Shown: in pieces, positions 13,604 through 50,122 of the stretch
Layout: every line of letters starts with the position of its first letter
How positions within the stretch are numbered: position 1 is the stretch's first letter
NCBI GenBank assembly: GCA_964366725.1
Contig: CAYIUL010000001.1
Span: 1 to 51,984, forward strand
Direction of reading: 5' to 3'
DNA from: an uncultured Candidatus Saccharibacteria bacterium
Lineage (GTDB): Bacteria > Patescibacteriota > Minisyncoccia > 2-02-FULL-40-12 > GWA2-44-9
Length of the DNA stretch: 51,984 nt
The notes under the pieces: generated by a model
What the model was told of the DNA's origin: nothing
What the model saw: only the letters and a program-made list of their open reading frames with translations
The model's database searches: none
Made by a program: the position numbers and the translations under genes

Positions 13604-15436
13604 TTATATCATCGTCACTTGGTGATCCACCAAACGTCGGTAGGACGGGCACGTCCGATAGAGATCGGGGTGCGTCCCTTCACCAACGACTCGCCCTTCG
13701 TCCATCACGATGATGCGGTTGGCGTACCGAATGGTCGAGAAGCGATGAGCGATGATGATGGTCGTCCGGCCCCGTGACGCTTCGTTGATGGCGTCGCGGA
13801 TCTCCGCCTCGACTGCGGCATCCAGTGAACTGGTCGCTTCGTCGAAGATTAGAATAGCCGGATCCTTGATGAGCGCCCGGGCTATGCCGACGCGCTGGCG
13901 TTCTCCGCCGGACAGCTTTATCCCGCGCTCGCCGATCAGGGTATCGAACCCCTTTTCAAGCTTGTGCGAGAACCGGCTGATCTGGGCGATCTTTGCAATC
14001 CGTTCCAACTCCTCTTCGGTCACGTCTTTGGCTTTCCCGTTGAGACCGTAGAGAATGTTGTAGCGGATGCTCTGATCGAACAGAGGCACAACCTGCTCCA
14101 CCACGCCCACCTTGGAACGGTAGTCGTGAAGGTCGACAACCCTGAGATCTTGGCCGTCGATAAGGACTTGCCCCGATATCGGATCACTGGCACGCACCAG
14201 TAAGCTGGCAAGTGTGGTTTTTCCGGAACCGGATTCGCCGACAATGGCCACCGTCTCACCTGGCGCTACCTTGAATGATACGTCCTGAAGCGCTGGCTTG
14301 CTAGATTTCTCAGGTTTGTGACCATCTGCCTCATCTTCGTCCGGCGAGATCGGCATACGGTTGTTGTAGGCGAAGGAAAGATTCCTCACCTCGATGTGAC
14401 CCCGAACGGGGTTGAGCACAACCGGGTTCGGAACAACTTTCACGTCCGATTCCATAGTCAGGAATTCGCAGTACCTTTTGATAGAGGTCCACATCCTGAT
14501 GATCTGGCGCTGTAAGTGTCCAATGTTCCACAGGCCGTCCAGCGCGTTTCCAGACCAAGCCCAGAAGACCACAATGGTGCCGACGGTGTAGCGTTTGTTG
14601 TAGACGTAGTAAGCGCCGACAGCCATTATCACTACCCTCGCCAGAATAACAATCATGGAGCGAAGGTAGGCGAGAATAAGAAATCGTCGCCACACAGGTC
14701 TTGCAAACGTGACCGTCTCGGCGTATTTCGCATCAGCTTCTTCTCGCGCCTTTTTTTCTTGCGCGTTTACCAGCACGTGGCCGATGTGTTGGATGATCTC
14801 GTTCCTGAATCTCGACTCCTGATTCCACATCTTCTCGAGCTTCTTCAGGTCGTCCTTGAAGGTGTAGTTCATCCAGAGAGTCAGCGAAATGAACAGCGCC
14901 ATAGCAACCAGAACGATTGAACCCATCGCCAAACTCAACCAGCACATTGCGAACGCCATGATAATCGCTCGTGAAGCGGTGGGCACAATCTCGTAGACCA
15001 GCATATTCACCAGTGAGGTGAGCGAGTGCTGGCCTCGATTGATAATGCTCTGCTTCAGGCCCGAATTGAGCGTGTTGTGCTGACCGACCGAGAGCGCCGT
15101 CATCCTGAACATCGTCTGGTCGCTCGCAGCTTCGTCGATATCAAAATCGACCTTATTCACTTCGTAGTTTTCACGCCCAAACGAGAGCATGTGGCCCAAA
15201 AGCATGACGCCTCCGGCCAATGCAATGAGCCAGTAGGTCTGACTCATGATTTCCTTAGGATACTCGTTTTTGAGTATTGCCGGCCCAAGGTTATCAATGA
15301 TGACACCCTGAATGTAGGGACTCACCAGTGACAGCGCCTGTCCCAGTGCGATGAGCACTAAAACAAGCGCCATACGCCATTTCAGGGGGCCGAAAATAGC
15401 CCACGCCTGCTCGAAAAACGCTTTTCGAAATGACAT
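13604..15436 (-). CDS. ABC exporter, fused permease + ATPase (MsbA-like type I)
   Basis: 610 aa. Six-helix TMD, Walker A GESGSGKTT, signature LSGGERQR, Walker B ILIFDEATS. GC-rich relative to its neighbours. Confidence 0.9.
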   Translation of the reverse strand: MSFRKAFFEQAWAIFGPLKWRMALVLVLIALGQALSLVSPYIQGVIIDNLGPAILKNEYPKEIMSQTYWLIALAGGVMLLGHMLSFGRENYEVNKVDFDIDEAASDQTMFRMTALSVGQHNTLNSGLKQSIINRGQHSLTSLVNMLVYEIVPTASRAIIMAFAMCWLSLAMGSIVLVAMALFISLTLWMNYTFKDDLKKLEKMWNQESRFRNEIIQHIGHVLVNAQEKKAREEADAKYAETVTFARPVWRRFLILAYLRSMIVILARVVIMAVGAYYVYNKRYTVGTIVVFWAWSGNALDGLWNIGHLQRQIIRMWTSIKRYCEFLTMESDVKVVPNPVVLNPVRGHIEVRNLSFAYNNRMPISPDEDEADGHKPEKSSKPALQDVSFKVAPGETVAIVGESGSGKTTLASLLVRASDPISGQVLIDGQDLRVVDLHDYRSKVGVVEQVVPLFDQSIRYNILYGLNGKAKDVTEEELERIAKIAQISRFSHKLEKGFDTLIGERGIKLSGGERQRVGIARALIKDPAILIFDEATSSLDAAVEAEIRDAINEASRGRTTIIIAHRFSTIRYANRIIVMDEGRVVGEGTHPDLYRTCPSYRRLVDHQVTMI

Positions 15437-15575
15437 TGCTGCCTCCTCCTTAGCACCCCGCGGGGTGCGATGATATTTAATAGTAAAAGAACCGTTTCAC
15501 TATTATACCATAAAGTTAAATTTATTCAAGACATTCAAAATTGCGTAAAATAGCCATTTTTAGTAAAATAAACCG

Positions 15576-16442
15576 GTGAATATCAGTGTTGTTACCATCA
15601 ACTACAACAGTTCGGAGAACACGATAAAACTTTTGGAGTCCCTCAAAAACCAGACCGACAAAAATTTTAATGTTTTGGTCATTGATAATAACTCCGGTCC
15701 GGACCAGAAAGCAATATTAAAGAACTACCGGACAGAAGAAACTAATATCGTATTTATCGAAAACGAACATAACCTGGGTTTTTCCGGAGGCAACAATGTC
15801 GGGATCAAGAAAGCCCTTGCAGATGGCGCTGACTGGATTCTCCTGCTCAATAACGATACTTGGGTAGAAAGTGACTTTATCCATCGTCTAAAGACAAATT
15901 TAGAAGGCAAGGAGGGGATAATGGGGTTGGCCATAGACGAAGGGGGCAGAACCGTTTACGCCGGTAAAATTGAATGGCTAAAACCCACACTTATCCACAT
16001 AACGACACGGGGTGTCGTTAGTCCACAGGCATATGCTATCGGGGGGGCGATGGCGGTGCATAAGAACGTATTTGAAAAAATAGGGTTCTTGGACGAGAGA
16101 TATTTTCTTTATTTTGAGGATGCCGATTACAGCATAAGGGCCCAAAAGGCGAGCATTCCCGTGGAGTTTTTGCCTGAAGTTCAGGTCCGCCATTCTGTCT
16201 CGGCGTCAACCAAAAAACTCGGCTCGCCTCTCATTCTGCGCTACCACTACCGCAATGCTTTGTATTTCAATTTGAAACACGGGCCATGGTATATCAAACT
16301 GCTTGTCTTGCCCTGGAGCTGGTTTGTGGCTGTAAAACAGATACTTAAGCTGACAGCGGGAAGAAACGCCAAAGAGTCAGAAGCAATATTGGCCGGGGTC
16401 GTAGATTTTTATAAAAACAATTACGGAAAACTTCATGTATAA
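15576..16442 (+). CDS. GT2-family glycosyltransferase
   Basis: 288 aa, GTG start. Motifs: VVTINYNS, VIDNNS, LLNNDT, YFEDADYS. Confidence 0.85.
   Translation: MNISVVTINYNSSENTIKLLESLKNQTDKNFNVLVIDNNSGPDQKAILKNYRTEETNIVFIENEHNLGFSGGNNVGIKKALADGADWILLLNNDTWVESDFIHRLKTNLEGKEGIMGLAIDEGGRTVYAGKIEWLKPTLIHITTRGVVSPQAYAIGGAMAVHKNVFEKIGFLDERYFLYFEDADYSIRAQKASIPVEFLPEVQVRHSVSASTKKLGSPLILRYHYRNALYFNLKHGPWYIKLLVLPWSWFVAVKQILKLTAGRNAKESEAILAGVVDFYKNNYGKLHV
16000..16020. repeat. in-CDS palindrome, TAACGAC family, copy B
   Basis: TAACGACAC-ggg-GTGTCGTTA, translated ITTRGVVS inside the GT2 gene. Confidence 0.85.
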
Positions 16443-32613: not shown

Positions 32614-34593
32614 ATGTTTGTCATTGAAGTCATTCCCTTAACCATTCTGCCCCCGAACGTTCCTCAAATCTTGAGCTACTTTTTTGATAAAAAACTCGAG
32701 CGTGGAGCGGTAGTCGTGGTAATTATCGGGAGCCGGAGCGTCAAGGCGATAGTGATCGATTCAATTCCCCTGACGGAACATAAGCTCGGTTTAAAAAAAG
32801 CGGAGTTCCAACTCAAGAAGCTTTCCGAAGTCCTGATGGAGACGCCGCAGATATCCGATCGGCAGCTCCGCATCGCTCTCTGGCTTTCCAAGACCTACTA
32901 TTCGCCTTTGGGCATATGTCTTAAAACCGTCCTGCCTCCGTTCTTTTTGAAGAAAAAATTCCCAATATTGCCGGAGGTGAGTATAAAAACAGAGGAAGAA
33001 GTGAAAAGAAAACCGGATCTCATTTTGACCGACGCCAAAAATGCGTTGAAGAATGTCCTGCCCCTGGTCAAGAGCGCGGTAAGCAAGAACGGACAGGCGG
33101 TTTTGATCGTTCCCGATAACCAAACTCTCGATTATTTTTGCGACAATTTAAAAGAGTTTGATACAACAAAGATATCTTCGGAAATGGGAAATAAGAAGTT
33201 TTTTGAGGCCTGGCAGAATATCCAGAGCGGGAAGACCAAAATATTGGTAGGCACAAGACAGGCGCTTCTTTTTCCCTTCAAGAAACTGACGCTGGTAATT
33301 GTCGACGACCCTCTGCACGAGTTCTATAAATCCGACATGTCTCCAAAATACAATACGGCCGATCTCGCCGGTTATGTAGCCAAAATAAACAACTGCCGCC
33401 TTTTATACCTGTCCCCCATCACAGGGGTCGAAAATTATTTCCTCTTGAAAAACAAAACATACGAATTGATAGACAAGACCTCGGCCTCGCCGCCCATTAA
33501 GATCGTCAACATGGTCAATGAGATAAAATCGGGAAATTTCTCTCTGTTAAGCAGGGAGTTAAAAAGTCAGATACTTTCCTTGGTTAATCCAACGAGTCAA
33601 AATAAAAAAATCCTCATTTTCTCACCGCGCCGGGGACATTCGGGCGTTCTTGTCTGCCAGAATTGCGGCTGGACAGCGAAGTGCCCGAATTGCGAAACGG
33701 CATACAGAATACATCGGGCCGAAGATCTGGTCCTAATGTGCCATCACTGCGGAAACACGCAGCGGCTCCCGGATCACTGCCCTAACTGCAACAGCTCCAA
33801 ACTAAAGCCGACGGGCCCGGCCGGAAGCCAGAAAATATATGAGGAGGTCAGAAGGGTTCTATCCCAGAATGAAATAAGCGGTCGCGGAGTGGGATTCCCT
33901 GTCGCCCGGCCGGAGGCCGTCGGCGACAAAGGGAACTCTGTCGTGCCTGTGCTGGTCCTGGATACGGACGTAACGACAAACCAAACCGAGGAAGAAGAAG
34001 TAATGTCCGAGATAGCCCTGCCAAAAACGTCCGTTCTCATTGCCACCCAGATGATATTTAGCTACCGCTACGACCACATCTTCGATTTCGTAGCCATTAT
34101 GAATACAGATTCCCTTATTCAATCTCCCGATTTCCGCACGGAGGAACGGCTGTTCTATCAGCTGGAAAAACTACTCGATTTCAAGCCGCAACAACTGCTT
34201 ATCCAGACCTTCAACCCCGAGAACCAAGCTATCTTGATGGCCTCACAAAGAAATTACAAGGACTTTTACGAAAAAGAACTGGCTGTACGGCAGGCCCTCT
34301 CGTATCCCCCATTCTCCAGATTGATAAAATTAACCTTCCGGCATCCCGACCGCGAAGTGGCTTCGCGCGAAGCAAGAATACTGGCCGGCAAACTAAAAAT
34401 GGCTGTAGTTCAATTAAAGTTATCGGATAAAATAAAAATAACCGACTCCTCTCCCGGATACACCGAAAAAGAACGCGGACTTTATACATACAACATAGTA
34501 ATCAAATCCCTCAACGGCCAAACCCCGAGAGAAATATTGAAATTCGTCCCCTCAAGGTGGCTGATAGATGTCGACCCTCGTTCCCTTCTATAG
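32614..34593 (+). CDS. priA: primosomal protein N' (PriA)-like, ATPase motifs degenerate
   Basis: 659 aa from ATG 32614. Cys-rich Zn region CQNCGWTAKCPNCETAY ... CHHCGN ... CPNC, plus VLIATQM. No GxGKT Walker A. DEEH is replaced by DDPLHE. No GRAGR. Confidence 0.8.
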   Translation: MFVIEVIPLTILPPNVPQILSYFFDKKLERGAVVVVIIGSRSVKAIVIDSIPLTEHKLGLKKAEFQLKKLSEVLMETPQISDRQLRIALWLSKTYYSPLGICLKTVLPPFFLKKKFPILPEVSIKTEEEVKRKPDLILTDAKNALKNVLPLVKSAVSKNGQAVLIVPDNQTLDYFCDNLKEFDTTKISSEMGNKKFFEAWQNIQSGKTKILVGTRQALLFPFKKLTLVIVDDPLHEFYKSDMSPKYNTADLAGYVAKINNCRLLYLSPITGVENYFLLKNKTYELIDKTSASPPIKIVNMVNEIKSGNFSLLSRELKSQILSLVNPTSQNKKILIFSPRRGHSGVLVCQNCGWTAKCPNCETAYRIHRAEDLVLMCHHCGNTQRLPDHCPNCNSSKLKPTGPAGSQKIYEEVRRVLSQNEISGRGVGFPVARPEAVGDKGNSVVPVLVLDTDVTTNQTEEEEVMSEIALPKTSVLIATQMIFSYRYDHIFDFVAIMNTDSLIQSPDFRTEERLFYQLEKLLDFKPQQLLIQTFNPENQAILMASQRNYKDFYEKELAVRQALSYPPFSRLIKLTFRHPDREVASREARILAGKLKMAVVQLKLSDKIKITDSSPGYTEKERGLYTYNIVIKSLNGQTPREILKFVPSRWLIDVDPRSLL

Positions 34594-34630
34594 AGTGTAC
34601 AAATGTACAAAGGGCGCCTTTGTACACTCT
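34592..34630. repeat. REP-like hairpin, left flank of the Y1 transposase
   Basis: AGAGTGTACAAATGTACAAAGG-gcg-CCTTTGTACACTCT. Core is GTACAAAGG-gcg-CCTTTGTAC at 34605-34625. Confidence 0.8.
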
Positions 34631-34641
34631 GCTCCCCTTTT

Positions 34642-35280
34642 TCAAAAGTCACCCTTATCTAGTAATAAATCCTCCATATCTTTTTTTGATTTTATAATTT
34701 CGTAAGACGATTCGGTGAATTCTTTAAAATCTTGAATATTCTTAAATTGATTGCCAATCAAAGCTGTGTCGCAAAGATCACTTTGACTGTTTAGGTAGGC
34801 AGGATAGCTGCTCCAGATATATTCGGCCGAATTTTTTATAAGACCTGCTACTTTAGGGTTTAAATGTATATAAGCTGCAAGCCAAGTTAGATAATCATTA
34901 TCATCCACTATTATTTGCCTGAACCGATCTTGAAAAACATGGCCCACATGCTTATATTTTTTATTGGAATATTTAGAGTAGCTTGTGCAGAGTTTTAGAA
35001 TTAATTTGCTCGGCGGTATTTCATTGTTTTGTTTTATAAGCAAATGAAAATGATTCGGCATCAAACAATATGCCAAAAGAGTAAATGAGCCCGACGGAAG
35101 AGGTTGGATTCTATAATATCTGTTTTTCTCATATGTTTCGGGAAATAAATTTTGCCTTAATCGCAATAGGAAAAATTGATAGTCCTCTCTATTGATAAAG
35201 ATGTTGTTTTTGAAATTGCCCCTATTATAAATATGGTAAATCTCGCCAACTCCTGTTTGTTTATAATCTCGCGTATTCAT
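34642..35280 (-). CDS. IS200-like / REP-associated tyrosine (Y1, HUH) transposase
   Basis: 212 aa. YHIYNRGN, LAYCLMPNHFHLLIKQ (HUH), GHVFQDRF, YIHLNPKVAGL (catalytic Tyr region). Confidence 0.8.
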   Translation of the reverse strand: MNTRDYKQTGVGEIYHIYNRGNFKNNIFINREDYQFFLLRLRQNLFPETYEKNRYYRIQPLPSGSFTLLAYCLMPNHFHLLIKQNNEIPPSKLILKLCTSYSKYSNKKYKHVGHVFQDRFRQIIVDDNDYLTWLAAYIHLNPKVAGLIKNSAEYIWSSYPAYLNSQSDLCDTALIGNQFKNIQDFKEFTESSYEIIKSKKDMEDLLLDKGDF

Positions 35281-35303
35281 GATCCTACCTTACTTTAATT
35301 CTC

Positions 35304-35336
35304 CCAACTGTGCAAAGGCGCCCTTTGTACGGTTGG
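35304..35336. repeat. REP-like hairpin, right flank of the Y1 transposase
   Basis: CCAACTGTGCAAAGG-cgc-CCTTTGTACGGTTGG. The core at 35310-35330 is the reverse complement of the left core apart from 1 mismatch. Confidence 0.8.
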
Positions 35337-43458: not shown

Positions 43459-44241
43459 TTACTTAACTTTGAGGTGTATCACCAGATTGCCCGGTTCTGC
43501 CTTATGCTTTCCGGTGTTTCCGCCGCGGGGCACGACGATGTCATAGCCCCTATCCAGTTCTTCGGGAATACGAAGTTCTATTTTCTTTTTGGTTTTTGCC
43601 CGTCCGGCGCCCCGGCAATGAGAACATTCTTTCTCGGGCATCTTTCCCTTGCCGCGACAGGTATTGCAGACGGTTATCCGGGAGAAGTATCCGAATCCGC
43701 TTCTGGTGGTTTGTCGGACTTGTCCTGTTCCTACGCAAGTTTTACAGTTCGCCATTGAGTATCCTTTAGCCACCCCTGACCCCTCGCATTCAGAACAGGA
43801 ATCGAGTATCTCGTATTCAATGACCCTTGATGTGCCCAGGTCTTTCTTGCTCACAGCGACTTCCACATACAAGTCCTCTCCTTTGGAGCGCTCCTCCTGC
43901 TGGGGAGAGCGGTATCCAAAAACATCCGAGAACATGTCGAACAGATCTTCCATTCCGCCGGCCCGGCCGCGTGAGCCGAACAAGTCGGAAAAATCAAAAC
44001 CCTGGCTGTATTGGCCGTGAAAACCGCCGTCATTATAGGCAAAACCGAAGTTGTCATAATTAGACCTCTTCTTGGGATCGGACAAGATTTGATAGGCCTC
44101 GTTTATTTCTTTAAACTTGGCCTCGTTGCCCGTTTTTTTATCGGGATGATGTTCGTGAGCCAGCTTGCGAAATGCCTTTTTTATTTCATCATCGCTCGCC
44201 GTCCTTGGTACTCCCAAAATTGTGTAGTAATCTTTATTCAT
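43459..44241 (-). CDS. dnaJ: DnaJ-type co-chaperone, short form
   Basis: 260 aa. J domain (HHPDK), G/F region and four CxxCxGxG repeats. Ends after the first C-terminal beta domain. Confidence 0.88.
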
Positions 44242-47146: not shown

Positions 47147-47896
47147 TTAATAAAGTTTATTTAATTCCTCGGTTATGTATTTGATCAGGGAGATATTTTT
47201 CTCGTAATCCATTCTGGTCGGTCCCACAAGCGTCAGTGAACCGATACAATCCCCCGGAAGACCGTACTTGGCGCACATAATGGTTTCGTGTTGGATCTGC
47301 CTGAAAGGACTTTCTTTACCTATCATTATCTGAACCGGCACTCCCCGGGGCGCGCCCAGCGTGTTGAAGAATTCCCGCTCAATGAACTGGAACATTCCCT
47401 CAAACTCTTCGAAGAAACTGGCCAGTTGAAATACTTTACCGACTTCTCTGAACTCCGGATGTTCAAATAAGCCGGCCAGTCCTTTTTTAAAAAAGTCCTC
47501 ATCTGTGGAGATTCCCGTAATCACTAAATTGTCCGAAAGATCCGATAATACCCTGGCCACGATCTTATTGATTTCTCTCGGGTCTGAGGGCGTGCCATGT
47601 ATCGCCCGCTTAATTTTGTTTTTATACTCCGCTCCTAAATCTAAATTGGCCTCACGCTCCAACAGCGAATTTACAAAATATCTGTATGTTTTGTCCGTCG
47701 GCACCCTCCCGCCGGAGGTGTGGAGTTGTCTTAAATAACCGGCCTGCTCCAAATCGAACATTTCGTTCCTTATTGTGGCCGAACTTAAATGTAAATGACC
47801 CTTATCCGCTGCAAGAACCGACCCGACCGGTTTTGCGGTTCTAATATACTCTCTAACCACGAAATCAAGCAATTTTTCCTGTCTTTTGCTTATCAT
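47147..47896 (-). CDS. hrcA: heat-inducible transcription repressor HrcA (short)
   Basis: 249 aa. Winged-helix N-terminus PVGSVLAA ... SSATIRNEM ... LEQAGYL. Heads hrcA-grpE-dnaK and has a CIRCE element upstream. Confidence 0.88.
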   Translation of the reverse strand: MISKRQEKLLDFVVREYIRTAKPVGSVLAADKGHLHLSSATIRNEMFDLEQAGYLRQLHTSGGRVPTDKTYRYFVNSLLEREANLDLGAEYKNKIKRAIHGTPSDPREINKIVARVLSDLSDNLVITGISTDEDFFKKGLAGLFEHPEFREVGKVFQLASFFEEFEGMFQFIEREFFNTLGAPRGVPVQIMIGKESPFRQIQHETIMCAKYGLPGDCIGSLTLVGPTRMDYEKNISLIKYITEELNKLY

Positions 47897-47934: not shown

Positions 47935-47962
47935 AGTATATTCCCCATTAGCACTCTGTCAA
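47935..47962 (-). promoter_or_regulatory. hrcA promoter overlapped by CIRCE
   Basis: On the minus strand: TTGACA (inside the CIRCE centre), 16 nt, TATACT. Confidence 0.65.
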
Positions 47963-47980
47963 GAGAGTGCTAATGGGGAA
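47941..47980. promoter_or_regulatory. CIRCE operator (HrcA binding site)
   Basis: TTCCCCATTAGCACTCT-gtcaag-AGAGTGCTAATGGGGAA. It contains TTAGCACTC-N8-GAGTGCTAA; the consensus spacer is N9. Confidence 0.85.
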
Positions 47981-48051
47981 TAAAGACGAATAAAAAAGTC
48001 CAATCTTAAGAACTTCGCATATCCATTAGGAAAAATTTTGCGTTATCCACA

Positions 48052-48079
48052 TTGACTAAATTTGTTTTGGATATAAAAT
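48052..48079 (+). promoter_or_regulatory. sigma70-like promoter for the downstream ncRNA candidate
   Basis: TTGACT (48052-48057), 16 nt, TAAAAT (48074-48079). Confidence 0.5.
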
Positions 48080-48085
48080 ATCTCT

Positions 48086-48409
48086 GTGGCTCTGATAATG
48101 GAGCCCTAAAATCTATATGTTCATTCTTATAGAAAAACTTAGGGCTCCGCTCTCTGGAGTAAGTGAGCGGTAAGAAACGTGATTACTGAAACTAAGCGTG
48201 AATTGTCGTGAATGAACCAAGACAATTAGCGGAGCCCGGCCTGCGCAAGTAGGGTCAGAGGATAGACAGTGTTGAGGGGGATGAATTAGTAACGGAGTAA
48301 TGACTCGATTACTAAAGTGTCCGGGCGTTTCAGTGCCTGGAAGAAAGTCCTCTCTGGAGTAAGTTTATCCTTGGGAAGGGACCGGATTCATTATCCGGTC
48401 TTTTCTTTT
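48086..48409 (+). ncRNA. candidate structured ncRNA or leader of unknown class (~320 nt) upstream of the RM pair
   Basis: 570-nt gene-free gap. 10-bp hairpin 48100-09/48139-48. GCAA-tetraloop hairpin 48240-53. Competing pairings among GGAGCCC, GGGCTCCGC and GCGGAGCCC. Strong terminator at the 3' end. No ORF. Confidence 0.5.
48380..48409 (+). terminator. intrinsic terminator
   Basis: GACCGGAT-tcatt-ATCCGGTC followed by TTTTCTTTT. Confidence 0.75.
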
Positions 48410-48464
48410 AAGTCCGACTGCACTTGGAATAAATATATAAAAACTATAAACTATATATGACACT

Positions 48465-49331
48465 ATGAATCTCCAGAGTATAGAAAAAATAAACCTTTTC
48501 AGCCAAAAAGATAAAATAAGAGCCGATATAATACTCGGCGACTGCTTTGAAGCGCTAAAGAAAATAGATGATAACAGCGTTGATTTAATAATTACTTCTC
48601 CCCCTTACGCCGACCAAAGAAAAAGCACTTATGGCGGTATTCACCCTGATAAATATGTGGACTGGTTTTTGCCTATAACCGGCGAACTTCTCCGAGTTCT
48701 TAAGCCCACCGGAACTTTTGTTTTAAATATTAAAGAAAAGGTCTCGGAGGGTGAGCGGCATACCTATGTAATGGAATTAATAACGGCAATGAGGAAGCAG
48801 GGCTGGCTTTGGACGGAAGAATTTATATGGCACAAAAAGAATTGCTACCCCGGTAAGTGGCCTAACCGATTTCGCGATGCGTGGGAACGTCTGCTACAAT
48901 TTAATAAGCAGAAGGATTTTAACATGTATCAAGAAGAAGTTATGGTGCCTATGGGCGACTGGGCCAAAACCCGCTTGAAAAATCTTAGTGAGACAGATAA
49001 ACGTAGAGACAATTCAAGAGTAGGCAGCGGTTTTGGGAAAAACATATCCAAATGGGTAGGCAGAGATATGGCCTATCCTTCCAATGTATTGAGTATGGCC
49101 ACCGAAACATCGAATAAACAGCACAGCGCCGTTTTCCCAAGAGAACTGCCGAGCTGGTTTATCAAACTTTTCACGAAAACGGGCGATGTGGTTCTTGACC
49201 CCTTTCTCGGTTCAGGCACCACATCAATCGCCGCGCTCGAGCTTGATCGCAACTCAATCGGTATTGAAATTAAAGAAGAATATTATCAGTTGGCAATTAA
49301 AAATATTAACGAACAAACCAAACTAATATGA
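48465..49331 (+). CDS. beta-class DNA methyltransferase (N4-cytosine or N6-adenine)
   Basis: 288 aa. Motif IV IITSPPYAD lies N-terminal and motif I VLDPFLGSGTT lies C-terminal, which is the beta-class order. SPPY favours m4C. Confidence 0.88.
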   Translation: MNLQSIEKINLFSQKDKIRADIILGDCFEALKKIDDNSVDLIITSPPYADQRKSTYGGIHPDKYVDWFLPITGELLRVLKPTGTFVLNIKEKVSEGERHTYVMELITAMRKQGWLWTEEFIWHKKNCYPGKWPNRFRDAWERLLQFNKQKDFNMYQEEVMVPMGDWAKTRLKNLSETDKRRDNSRVGSGFGKNISKWVGRDMAYPSNVLSMATETSNKQHSAVFPRELPSWFIKLFTKTGDVVLDPFLGSGTTSIAALELDRNSIGIEIKEEYYQLAIKNINEQTKLI

Positions 49332-50089
49332 ATAAATTAAATTATGAAAAACTAAATGAATTTATATCCTCGGATATTATAGGGCCTTTTTATCATATTC
49401 GTTTGGAAAGATTAGAATCCGCCAGTTTGGCCATTATAGCTAAGAGAAAAAATCCTTATTTATTTAAGGCCAAAAACATAGAAACCGCAGGCGATCTTGC
49501 GAAGGCGGTTCTTGACGCTTTTCTCTCCTCGCAAGAAGAAACAATTTTTGGCGACTTAATGGAAAATCTTGCGATTCATGTGTGTCATGAGATTTTTGAC
49601 GGCAATAAAGCAGAAGAGGGAAAATATCGTAGCGTTGATCTTATTTTTACGCGAGATAACAAACTATATATCGTAGGCATAAAGTCCGGTCCAAATTGGG
49701 GCAATAGCGACCAAATAAATATCATGAAAAAGAACTTTAAGGCCGCAAAAAAACTTATTCGGGCAGCGCAAGAAGATACTAAGACCATCGTCGCCGTGAA
49801 CGGTTGTATGTATGGCAGGGACAATAAACCTCACAAAGTAAGCAAAGACCCCGACTTAAGCTACTACAAAATATGCGGGCAAGCATTTTGGGAGTTAGTA
49901 TCTGGAGACGACCAGCTCTATAAAAAGATTATTCAACCACTCGACAAAGAGGCCAAAAAGAGAGATGAGACCTTTAAAAAGTTGTATGTGAAAAAGATTA
50001 ACGAAATGACTAAAGACATAGTTAATTTATTTTATGTCAAAGATAACCTGGACTGGGAAAAAATTATTGATTACGTCTCAAAAAGTTAA
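49328..50089 (+). CDS. putative type II restriction endonuclease partner
   Basis: 253 aa. ATGA overlap with the methyltransferase stop. KRKNPYLFKAKN and VDLIF ... IVGIKSGPNWGN (D...xK) recall Eco47II/TdeIII-type REases from memory; this was not verified. Confidence 0.55.
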   Translation: MNKLNYEKLNEFISSDIIGPFYHIRLERLESASLAIIAKRKNPYLFKAKNIETAGDLAKAVLDAFLSSQEETIFGDLMENLAIHVCHEIFDGNKAEEGKYRSVDLIFTRDNKLYIVGIKSGPNWGNSDQINIMKKNFKAAKKLIRAAQEDTKTIVAVNGCMYGRDNKPHKVSKDPDLSYYKICGQAFWELVSGDDQLYKKIIQPLDKEAKKRDETFKKLYVKKINEMTKDIVNLFYVKDNLDWEKIIDYVSKS

Positions 50090-50122
50090 ACAAAGTAAAA
50101 TAAAACGCCTTGTTTATATTTA

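Follow-up and report, generated by a model that had tools for sequence, protein, structure and literature searches.

What is the long, strongly folding stretch of noncoding DNA that lies immediately upstream of a restriction-modification (RM) gene pair in a bacterium of the candidate phyla radiation (CPR), and what might it do there? The stretch (positions 48085–48412, plus strand, 328 nucleotides (nt)) occupies most of the 568-nt spacer between hrcA (47147–47896, minus strand) and a DNA methyltransferase gene (48465–49331, plus strand). It was found in a 51,984-nt stretch of DNA, referred to here as the window, from an uncultured Candidatus Saccharibacteria bacterium (GenBank assembly GCA_964366725.1, contig CAYIUL010000001.1). 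A preliminary description of the window had given this gap as ~570 nt and had placed in it an unclassified structured RNA candidate of ~320 nt. That description holds in that the stretch folds strongly, is noncoding, and has no Rfam assignment. The feature is real and statistically unusual, and it is a singleton located within a recent insertion. Our tentative reading, held with somewhat less than even confidence, is that the stretch is an acquired, self-contained noncoding transcription unit, one whose transcription we infer and which would stop transcription before the RM operon.

The minimum free energy (MFE) of 48085–48412 (plus strand) is −122.8 kcal/mol, as compared with −89.6 ± 5.6 kcal/mol for dinucleotide shuffles (z = −5.9). 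The minus strand folded as RNA over the same stretch has a z-score of −5.0. When MFE was regressed on GC content for 1260 segments, each 328 nt long and taken from the whole 52 kb, the stretch had a GC-adjusted value of −4.0 standard deviations (SD), the most extreme of all segments. The next best value, −3.7 SD, belongs to 15089–15580 (minus strand), which overlaps the 5' part of an ABC transporter gene (13604–15436) along with sequence upstream of it.

The predicted fold consists of two domains and a linking hairpin. Domain I (48086–48237, plus strand) is a multi-branch junction closed by GUGGCUCUG/CGGAGCCC and has a z-score of −5.2 when folded alone. It is composed of a 10-base pair (bp) hairpin with an AU-rich extension (48100–48148), a small hairpin containing the first copy of a 15-nt repeat (48149–48168), a weak stem of 4 bp enclosing a 15-nt loop (48177–48199), and a 9-bp hairpin (48201–48227). 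A hairpin with a GCAA tetraloop of the GNRA type (48238–48256, plus strand) connects domain I to domain II (48258–48372, plus strand). The latter is a three-way junction with stacked closing helices, GAGGAUAGAC/GUUUAUCCUU and GAGGGGG/UCCUCUC, and with junction hairpins at 48286–48315 and 48320–48341. Domain II and the GCAA hairpin, folded separately from domain I, have a z-score of −4.8. The helices of domain I are purely Watson-Crick. G·U pairs make up 15 of the 105 predicted pairs and are found mostly in domain II (seven pairs), the GNRA hairpin, and the terminator described below; these would be A·C on the other strand. Together with the U-run of the terminator, the G·U pairs give the element a plus-strand polarity.

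The pairings listed in the preliminary description are all perfect. The arms of its 10-bp hairpin (48100–48109 and 48139–48148) are fully complementary, its GCAA hairpin is present at 48240–48253, and among its mutually exclusive partners the segments 48142–48151 and 48228–48237 are likewise fully complementary. We identified a fourth segment, GGCUCUG (GGCTCTG in DNA) at 48088, which can pair with either GGAGCC copy. Two conformers of the 5' part are predicted to lie 3.1 kcal/mol apart, the less stable one having a hairpin at 48088–48105 together with the 48142–48151/48228–48237 helix. Only one single-nucleotide polymorphism (SNP) occurs among the five copies of the locus, a G to T change at 48274 (position 1051 of contig L002). 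This is the first base of GAGGGGG (48274–48280), which closes the local three-way junction, and the change would break a terminal G-C pair in domain II; it occurs in one contig and is possibly an assembly error.

Downstream of domain II is an intrinsic terminator (48373–48409, plus strand), which agrees in all respects with that noted previously. Its 8-bp GC-rich stem is formed by GACCGGAT (48380–48387) and ATCCGGTC (48393–48400) around the 5-nt loop TCATT, and is followed by TTTTCTTTT extending to 48409. As RNA, this reads GACCGGAU-UCAUU-AUCCGGUC and then UUUUCUUUU, ending 55 nt before the methyltransferase ATG. The strand that would be transcribed thus bears the mark of an intrinsic terminator, a GC-rich hairpin with a U-run directly after it. 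The hairpin has a predicted energy of −13.5 kcal/mol at 8 bp and −21.1 kcal/mol when extended to 15 pairs. A consensus scan for terminators did not list it, presumably because the stem can extend into the T-run. We found no competing antiterminator. Forbidding the 3' arm of the terminator costs 19.2 kcal/mol, the hairpin itself being worth about 19–21 kcal/mol, and the 5' arm regains only ~2.4 kcal/mol in other pairings when the 3' arm is blocked.

The closest relatives by HrcA place the organism of the window among Candidatus Yanofskybacteria (Parcubacteria, CPR). In about 20 relatives (HrcA 47–88% identical; loci L005–L009, L012–L016, L019–L022, L024, and L077–L079), the gene next to hrcA is a divergently oriented Nramp transporter gene. 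The spacer between hrcA and Nramp in the relatives is 117–260 nt, and longer where unrelated genes have been inserted; the methyltransferase (M) and restriction endonuclease (R) genes do not occur between them. Since Nramp adjoins hrcA in every relative examined, the M-R pair together with the RNA-like region constitutes a lineage-specific insertion of ~2.0–2.1 kb, with limits at about 47983–48085 and about 50090–50105. The preliminary description had counted a lack of sequence or structure conservation in related genomes as grounds against the candidate. No such conservation is found: homologues of the structured region are absent from 57 GTDB hrcA loci and from three closer metagenome contigs, most of which have too little room for it, and the relatives are without the region altogether because it lies in a recent insertion. 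A conserved noncoding RNA (ncRNA) is left unsupported by this result, which does not disprove that an RNA is made.

The inserted genes encode an N6/N4 DNA methyltransferase (48465–49331, plus strand; Pfam E-value 1e-45) and a restriction endonuclease of the EcoO109I family (49328–50089, plus strand; Pfam E-value 2e-71). The two genes share a 4-nt overlap, and the pair spans 48465–50089 (plus strand). The Nramp start codon is located 33 nt past the stop codon of R, and the gap between them (50090–50122) has no terminator. The insertion split the native Nramp promoter region, and for this reason Nramp is now likely to share a transcript with the acquired genes. The exact methyltransferase was found only in 0.1-μm metagenomes of Hainich H43 groundwater, in which the locus is identical save for the one SNP; the four other contigs that carry the locus represent the same population.

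In 2010, Furuta and colleagues reportedly described mobile RM systems that insert between genes. The present locus resembles such systems in having a compact M-R pair in one lineage, an empty site in close relatives, and no integrase or transposase gene adjoining the M-R unit. It differs from them in carrying ~380 nt of additional structured noncoding DNA at one end and in lacking significant target duplications or terminal inverted repeats for the 2-kb insert, the 7-nt word TAAAATA that occurs at both junctions not being significant. The hrcA-Nramp spacer, which lies beside the CIRCE operator, is an insertion hotspot in Yanofskybacteria. In one relative (L009) it contains a gene for an IS200-like Y1 transposase with short palindromes on both sides; close homologues of this gene occur in L015, L021, and L022. 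A Trp-repressor-like gene is found in L014, other open reading frames (ORFs) in L006, L016, and L019, and clusters of GC-rich hairpins in L005 and L013. The CIRCE hairpin might attract transposases that recognize hairpins.

A sigma-70-like site, TTGACT-16-TAAAAT (48052–48079, plus strand), precedes the structured stretch, as was noted previously. The site matches the consensus at 10 of 12 positions with a spacer of 16 nt. Such sites are expected 2.6 times by chance in the AT-rich 1.2 kb scanned, so that by itself the match counts for little; the rules for CPR promoters may differ. The relatives have ..GTGATAAAAT..ATATCT.. just 5' of the Nramp ATG, which the site in the window resembles. Alignment of the site with the Nramp promoters of relatives gave p of about 0.04 for one of them (L008) and no significant values for the others. 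This similarity is no more than suggestive of a native Nramp promoter, and the site may be either that promoter, displaced by the insertion, or one belonging to the insert itself.

The RM cassette is not confined to this lineage. Its methyltransferase belongs to a widespread family (>8000 hits at E ≤ 1e-30) represented on very many metagenome contigs, and the best 120 of these are 79–93% identical to it. The source labels of these 120 proteins include several CPR lineages, and cluster P0006 is labeled Nanoarchaeia (proteins P0002–P0120). Sequence relationships of this kind suggest that the cassette was recently transferred between ultra-small bacteria and archaea. We examined 53 homologous M-R cassettes, 20 from metagenome loci (L062–L081) and 33 from viral contigs (L082–L114). 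In none of the 53 was the structured region found by nhmmer and/or with a covariance model built from it. The upstream regions of the cassettes are all different, with homology among them beginning at the methyltransferase start codon. With no similarity in any of the 53, the structured region is not a conserved part of this RM family.

The closest relatives of the methyltransferase (87–93% identical) differ in what lies upstream of M. In L062–L065, L074–L076, and L080, the position immediately upstream is held by a gene for a 57-amino acid helix-turn-helix (HTH) protein of the HTH_17 family. This gene ends 2–12 nt before M and is preceded by a palindromic word, TTGTAAAGTACAA, that looks like the operator of a controller (C) protein. 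In L066–L073, M is separated by a spacer of ~90 nt from an Mrr-like gene upstream. L081 has a 261-nt stretch with no called gene, which carries the word TGTAAAGTACAA found before the HTH gene in L062 and which we read as a probable decayed HTH region. The structured region of the window thus sits where the closest cassettes hold a C-protein-like gene, and no remnant of the HTH gene was detected in the window's spacer by tblastn. The EcoO109I system has a C protein. The stretch resembles the C-protein modules of type II RM systems in its position immediately upstream of M, but differs from them in having neither an ORF nor similarity to HTH genes, and in being an RNA-like element that ends in a terminator.

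On the reading we favor, transcription would start ~7 nt past the TAAAAT box, near 48086, and the resulting RNA of ~325 nt would fold into two multi-helix domains joined by the GNRA hairpin. The terminator, acting constitutively, would end the transcript at about 48409. The unit would form the upstream edge of ~2 kb of foreign DNA that split the ancestral divergent promoter region of hrcA and Nramp. Acting in cis, it would shield the M-R(-Nramp) operon from transcription that begins in that promoter region, and M and R would then be expressed by leakage through the terminator and/or from a weak promoter within the 55 nt that precede M. The folded body could be a stable by-product of such transcription, or the RNA could itself be functional. 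By analogy, the element is most like a terminated small RNA (sRNA) or leader unit on acquired DNA, and belongs to no described RNA family. It has in common with sRNA genes and terminated leaders on acquired islands a promoter-like site, a folded noncoding body of ~320 nt, a hairpin with a U-run, and a location on acquired DNA. It differs from them in being larger and more branched, in having a transcript that is predicted only, and in being without a family, homologues, or an identified target.

Several observations weigh against this reading. No homologue of the structured region was found by nhmmer, blastn, or a single-sequence covariance model over all 114 loci (~1.2 Mb), and therefore neither covariation nor conservation supports a function at the RNA level. 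The covariance model found only the stretch itself in 1.0 Mb and a further 0.17 Mb. Six DNA-pattern scans of viral contigs and two pattern scans of metagenomes also returned nothing, although these demanded 20–27 exact bases and were capped in extent, and diverged relatives could have escaped them. Distant BLAST searches of phage and plasmid collections were likewise negative, and there is no second copy in the window. Folding with single-stranded DNA parameters yielded significant z-scores for both strands (−5.2 and −4.8), and consequently the folding statistics alone are not proof of an RNA. A match such as that at the promoter-like site is of the kind that chance provides in AT-rich DNA. 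Lastly, a hairpin terminator by itself would suffice for insulation, and the structured body of 290 nt is left unexplained by the proposed mechanism.

The stretch may instead encode a free-standing functional ncRNA of an undescribed family, trans-acting or protein-binding, that was brought in with the foreign DNA. We consider this possible but rather unlikely. Function would then reside in the folded body, with kissing loops perhaps joining its two domains, and would have nothing to do with termination into M-R. The strength of the overall fold and of each domain (z near −5), the GNRA hairpin, and the presence of a promoter-like site and terminator belonging to the element itself are all consistent with such an RNA. 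So are two loop-loop complementarities. In the first, the apical loop UUCAUU (48120–48125, plus strand) is Watson-Crick complementary to the loop AAUGAA (48211–48216), forming a candidate kissing interaction. The terminator loop shares the word TTCATT with this apical loop (48387–48392 and 48120–48125), giving the AAUGAA loop two possible partners. In the second, the loop segment (A)CUGAAA(C) (48186–48193, plus strand) complements the hairpin loop GUUUCAGU (48327–48334). The core of this pairing, CUGAAA (48186–48191) with UUUCAG (48328–48333), extends to 8–9 pairs. The model leaves this second pairing a candidate for either an inter-domain kissing interaction or an alternative helix, and it is indeed predicted as a helix when DNA parameters are used or the minus strand is folded. 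When the unpaired bases were shuffled 3000 times, at least two loop-loop matches of 6 nt arose with a frequency of 0.0003. Also fitting a free-standing ncRNA is the exact 15-nt repeat within the stretch, which predicted helices cross. Against it, the stretch was a singleton in every search and hence offers no covariation; its absence from all close relatives means that it is not a housekeeping RNA; and no partner gene lies nearby, the neighbors in the window being ordinary chromosomal genes. The predicted RNA is no more complementary to the start regions of M, R, Nramp, and hrcA than shuffled sequences are.

We accord a similarly low probability to the stretch being a non-functional relic, that is, hairpin-rich foreign or repeat-derived DNA stranded at an insertion hotspot. 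Such DNA could be donor flanking sequence that accompanied the RM genes, or else a non-autonomous element now decayed, with palindromes inflating the folding scores. The contents of the hrcA-Nramp spacer in relatives (Y1 transposase genes, palindromes, small genes, and clusters of GC-rich hairpins) make this plausible, as do the significant DNA-parameter folds of both strands, the purely Watson-Crick helices of domain I, and the lack of conservation anywhere. The 15-nt repeat bears on this question as well. Its two exact direct copies of CTCTCTGGAGTAAGT are located at 48150–48164 and, 200 nt downstream, at 48350–48364 (both plus strand); its borders are sharp, giving it a recombinational look, and no further exact copies occur in the window. 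We considered whether the repeat is the clean scar of a 185-nt insertion, and this was not supported. Folded by themselves, the 185 nt that separate the copies give only a modest z-score (−2.4), and the whole reaches −5.9 because predicted helices cross both borders of the repeat.

A Y1 transposase gene of the IS200-like type does occur in the window (34642–35280, minus strand, within 34592–35335). It is bordered by 27-nt inverted copies of the palindrome TGTACAAAGG-GCG-CCTTTGTACA and has the look of a REP/RAYT-type element. The structured stretch resembles the REP and PATE elements of IS200-like Y1 transposases in being hairpin-rich noncoding DNA located where Y1 insertions are found in relatives, with a Y1 gene present in the same window. 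It differs from them in having a polar, G·U-dependent structure and a terminator. An origin as a REP or PATE element of the resident Y1 gene was rejected, as the palindrome TGTACAAAGG..CCTTTGTACA is absent from the stretch and the stretch is present as a single copy in the window. For a relic more generally, the G·U pairs and the U-run, with their clear plus-strand RNA polarity, are unfavorable; so are the lack of other copies in the 52 kb, of palindromes in common with the resident Y1 element, and of terminal inverted repeats.

Whether the element might be the first member of a new class is a further question. Large, compact RNAs, made of two domains linked through kissing loops and containing an internal 15-nt repeat, could travel with RM genes in CPR and DPANN organisms and take on the timing or dosage role of C proteins, or some other role in defense, but we regard this as a long shot.

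More doubtful still is a conditional leader, such as a riboswitch, attenuator, or thermosensor, that would tune or delay expression of the restriction enzyme in place of a C protein. The two 5' conformers within 3.1 kcal/mol of each other and the location of the stretch at the position of the 57-amino acid HTH gene are in keeping with such a device. However, the terminator is 140–290 nt downstream of the segments capable of switching, with no overlap between them, and has no competing antiterminator of comparable stability. No known riboswitch class matches the stretch, no aptamer recognizable across genomes was found, and no other cassette of the RM family among those examined has the region. 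The earlier suggestion of a terminator-based leader controlling RM expression is not supported, given the lack of an antiterminator and the absence of the region from all 53 cassettes. Known RNA-based control of RM systems is exerted by short antisense RNAs from reverse promoters (PMC3874152, a review of RM regulation), unlike the long, upstream, sense RNA predicted here.

The stretch also matches no known RNA family. Searching the whole window at Rfam 15 gathering thresholds gave no matches, and searches of a 671-nt and a 336-nt stretch at E ≤ 10 gave only generic hairpin or terminator look-alikes far below threshold. The weak generic matches to STnc390 and sX14 are confined to the terminator hairpin. 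The comparison with Rfam proposed in the preliminary description thus yields no confident assignment. ARAGORN, run with permuted forms allowed, found no tRNA or tmRNA in the window.

RNase P RNA warrants mention since fragments of the stretch had been likened to its motifs, in the wrong order. The words in question, GCGGTAAGA and GGAAGAAAGTCC, are present, but the resemblance is not significant. That the stretch is the RNase P RNA of this CPR bacterium in a highly divergent, rearranged, or circularly permuted form is very improbable, and we regard this as largely refuted. What recalls RNase P RNA (RF00010/RF00011) is the length of the stretch, the words GGAAGAAAGUCC, GCGGUAAGA, GAUGAAU, and a GCGCAAG hairpin followed by UCAG, which are reminiscent of conserved regions (CR-I and CR-II/III), and the GNRA hairpin. 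The RNase P RNAs of CPR bacteria are divergent and fall below Rfam thresholds (PMC8172020). Nonetheless, neither RF00010 nor RF00011 matched the 336-nt or 671-nt stretch at E ≤ 10, even with truncated matches allowed, and the best local alignment to Escherichia coli M1 RNA had a score of 22, which was reached by 16 of 300 shuffles. The order of the motifs forbids the P4 pseudoknot, a long-range helix between the CR-I and CR-V strands: GAAAGUCC occurs just once, near the 3' end, and its sole partner, GAGGGGG (48274–48280), is upstream. Moreover, the locus is a recent insertion missing in relatives rather than a conserved one, something not to be expected of an essential gene in single copy.

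No gene was called in the structured region in the four independent contigs, and its open frames have no matches in Pfam, in protein databases, or by tblastx. Equally remote is a small protein acting as the controller, for instance one encoded by the 47-codon ORF with a GTG start at 48317–48460, which ends 5 nt before the methyltransferase gene where related cassettes hold C-protein genes, as this ORF passes through the terminator hairpin, is uncalled in the four contigs, has no Pfam match and only three spurious repetitive hits among 1.84 billion protein representatives (HMMER), and is dissimilar to the HTH protein of the relatives. On the minus strand, a stop-free frame of 83 codons (48116–48364) crosses the structured region in antisense orientation and lacks a start codon that could be used. 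Its translation, used to catch spurious ORFs over homologous loci, had no match in Pfam or the protein databases.

The value of these results is mostly corrective. They remove the RNase P and riboswitch-like readings and the notion of a conserved RM leader, and leave a recent insertion into the hrcA-Nramp hotspot, by which Nramp transcription was probably rewired. Should the element prove to be both transcribed and functional, it would provide a mobile RM cassette of an ultra-small bacterium with an RNA module in place of a protein controller. The noncoding RNAs of this phylum are barely charted, and a large structured one would then be added to them.

The hrcA-grpE-dnaK genes run from 47896 down to 44787, and dnaJ is located at 43459–44241. 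Upstream of them, the CIRCE operator (TTAGCACTC-N9-GAGTGCTAA) is contained in a perfect 19-nt inverted repeat (47939–47982). The HrcA protein of the window is short, at 249 amino acids.

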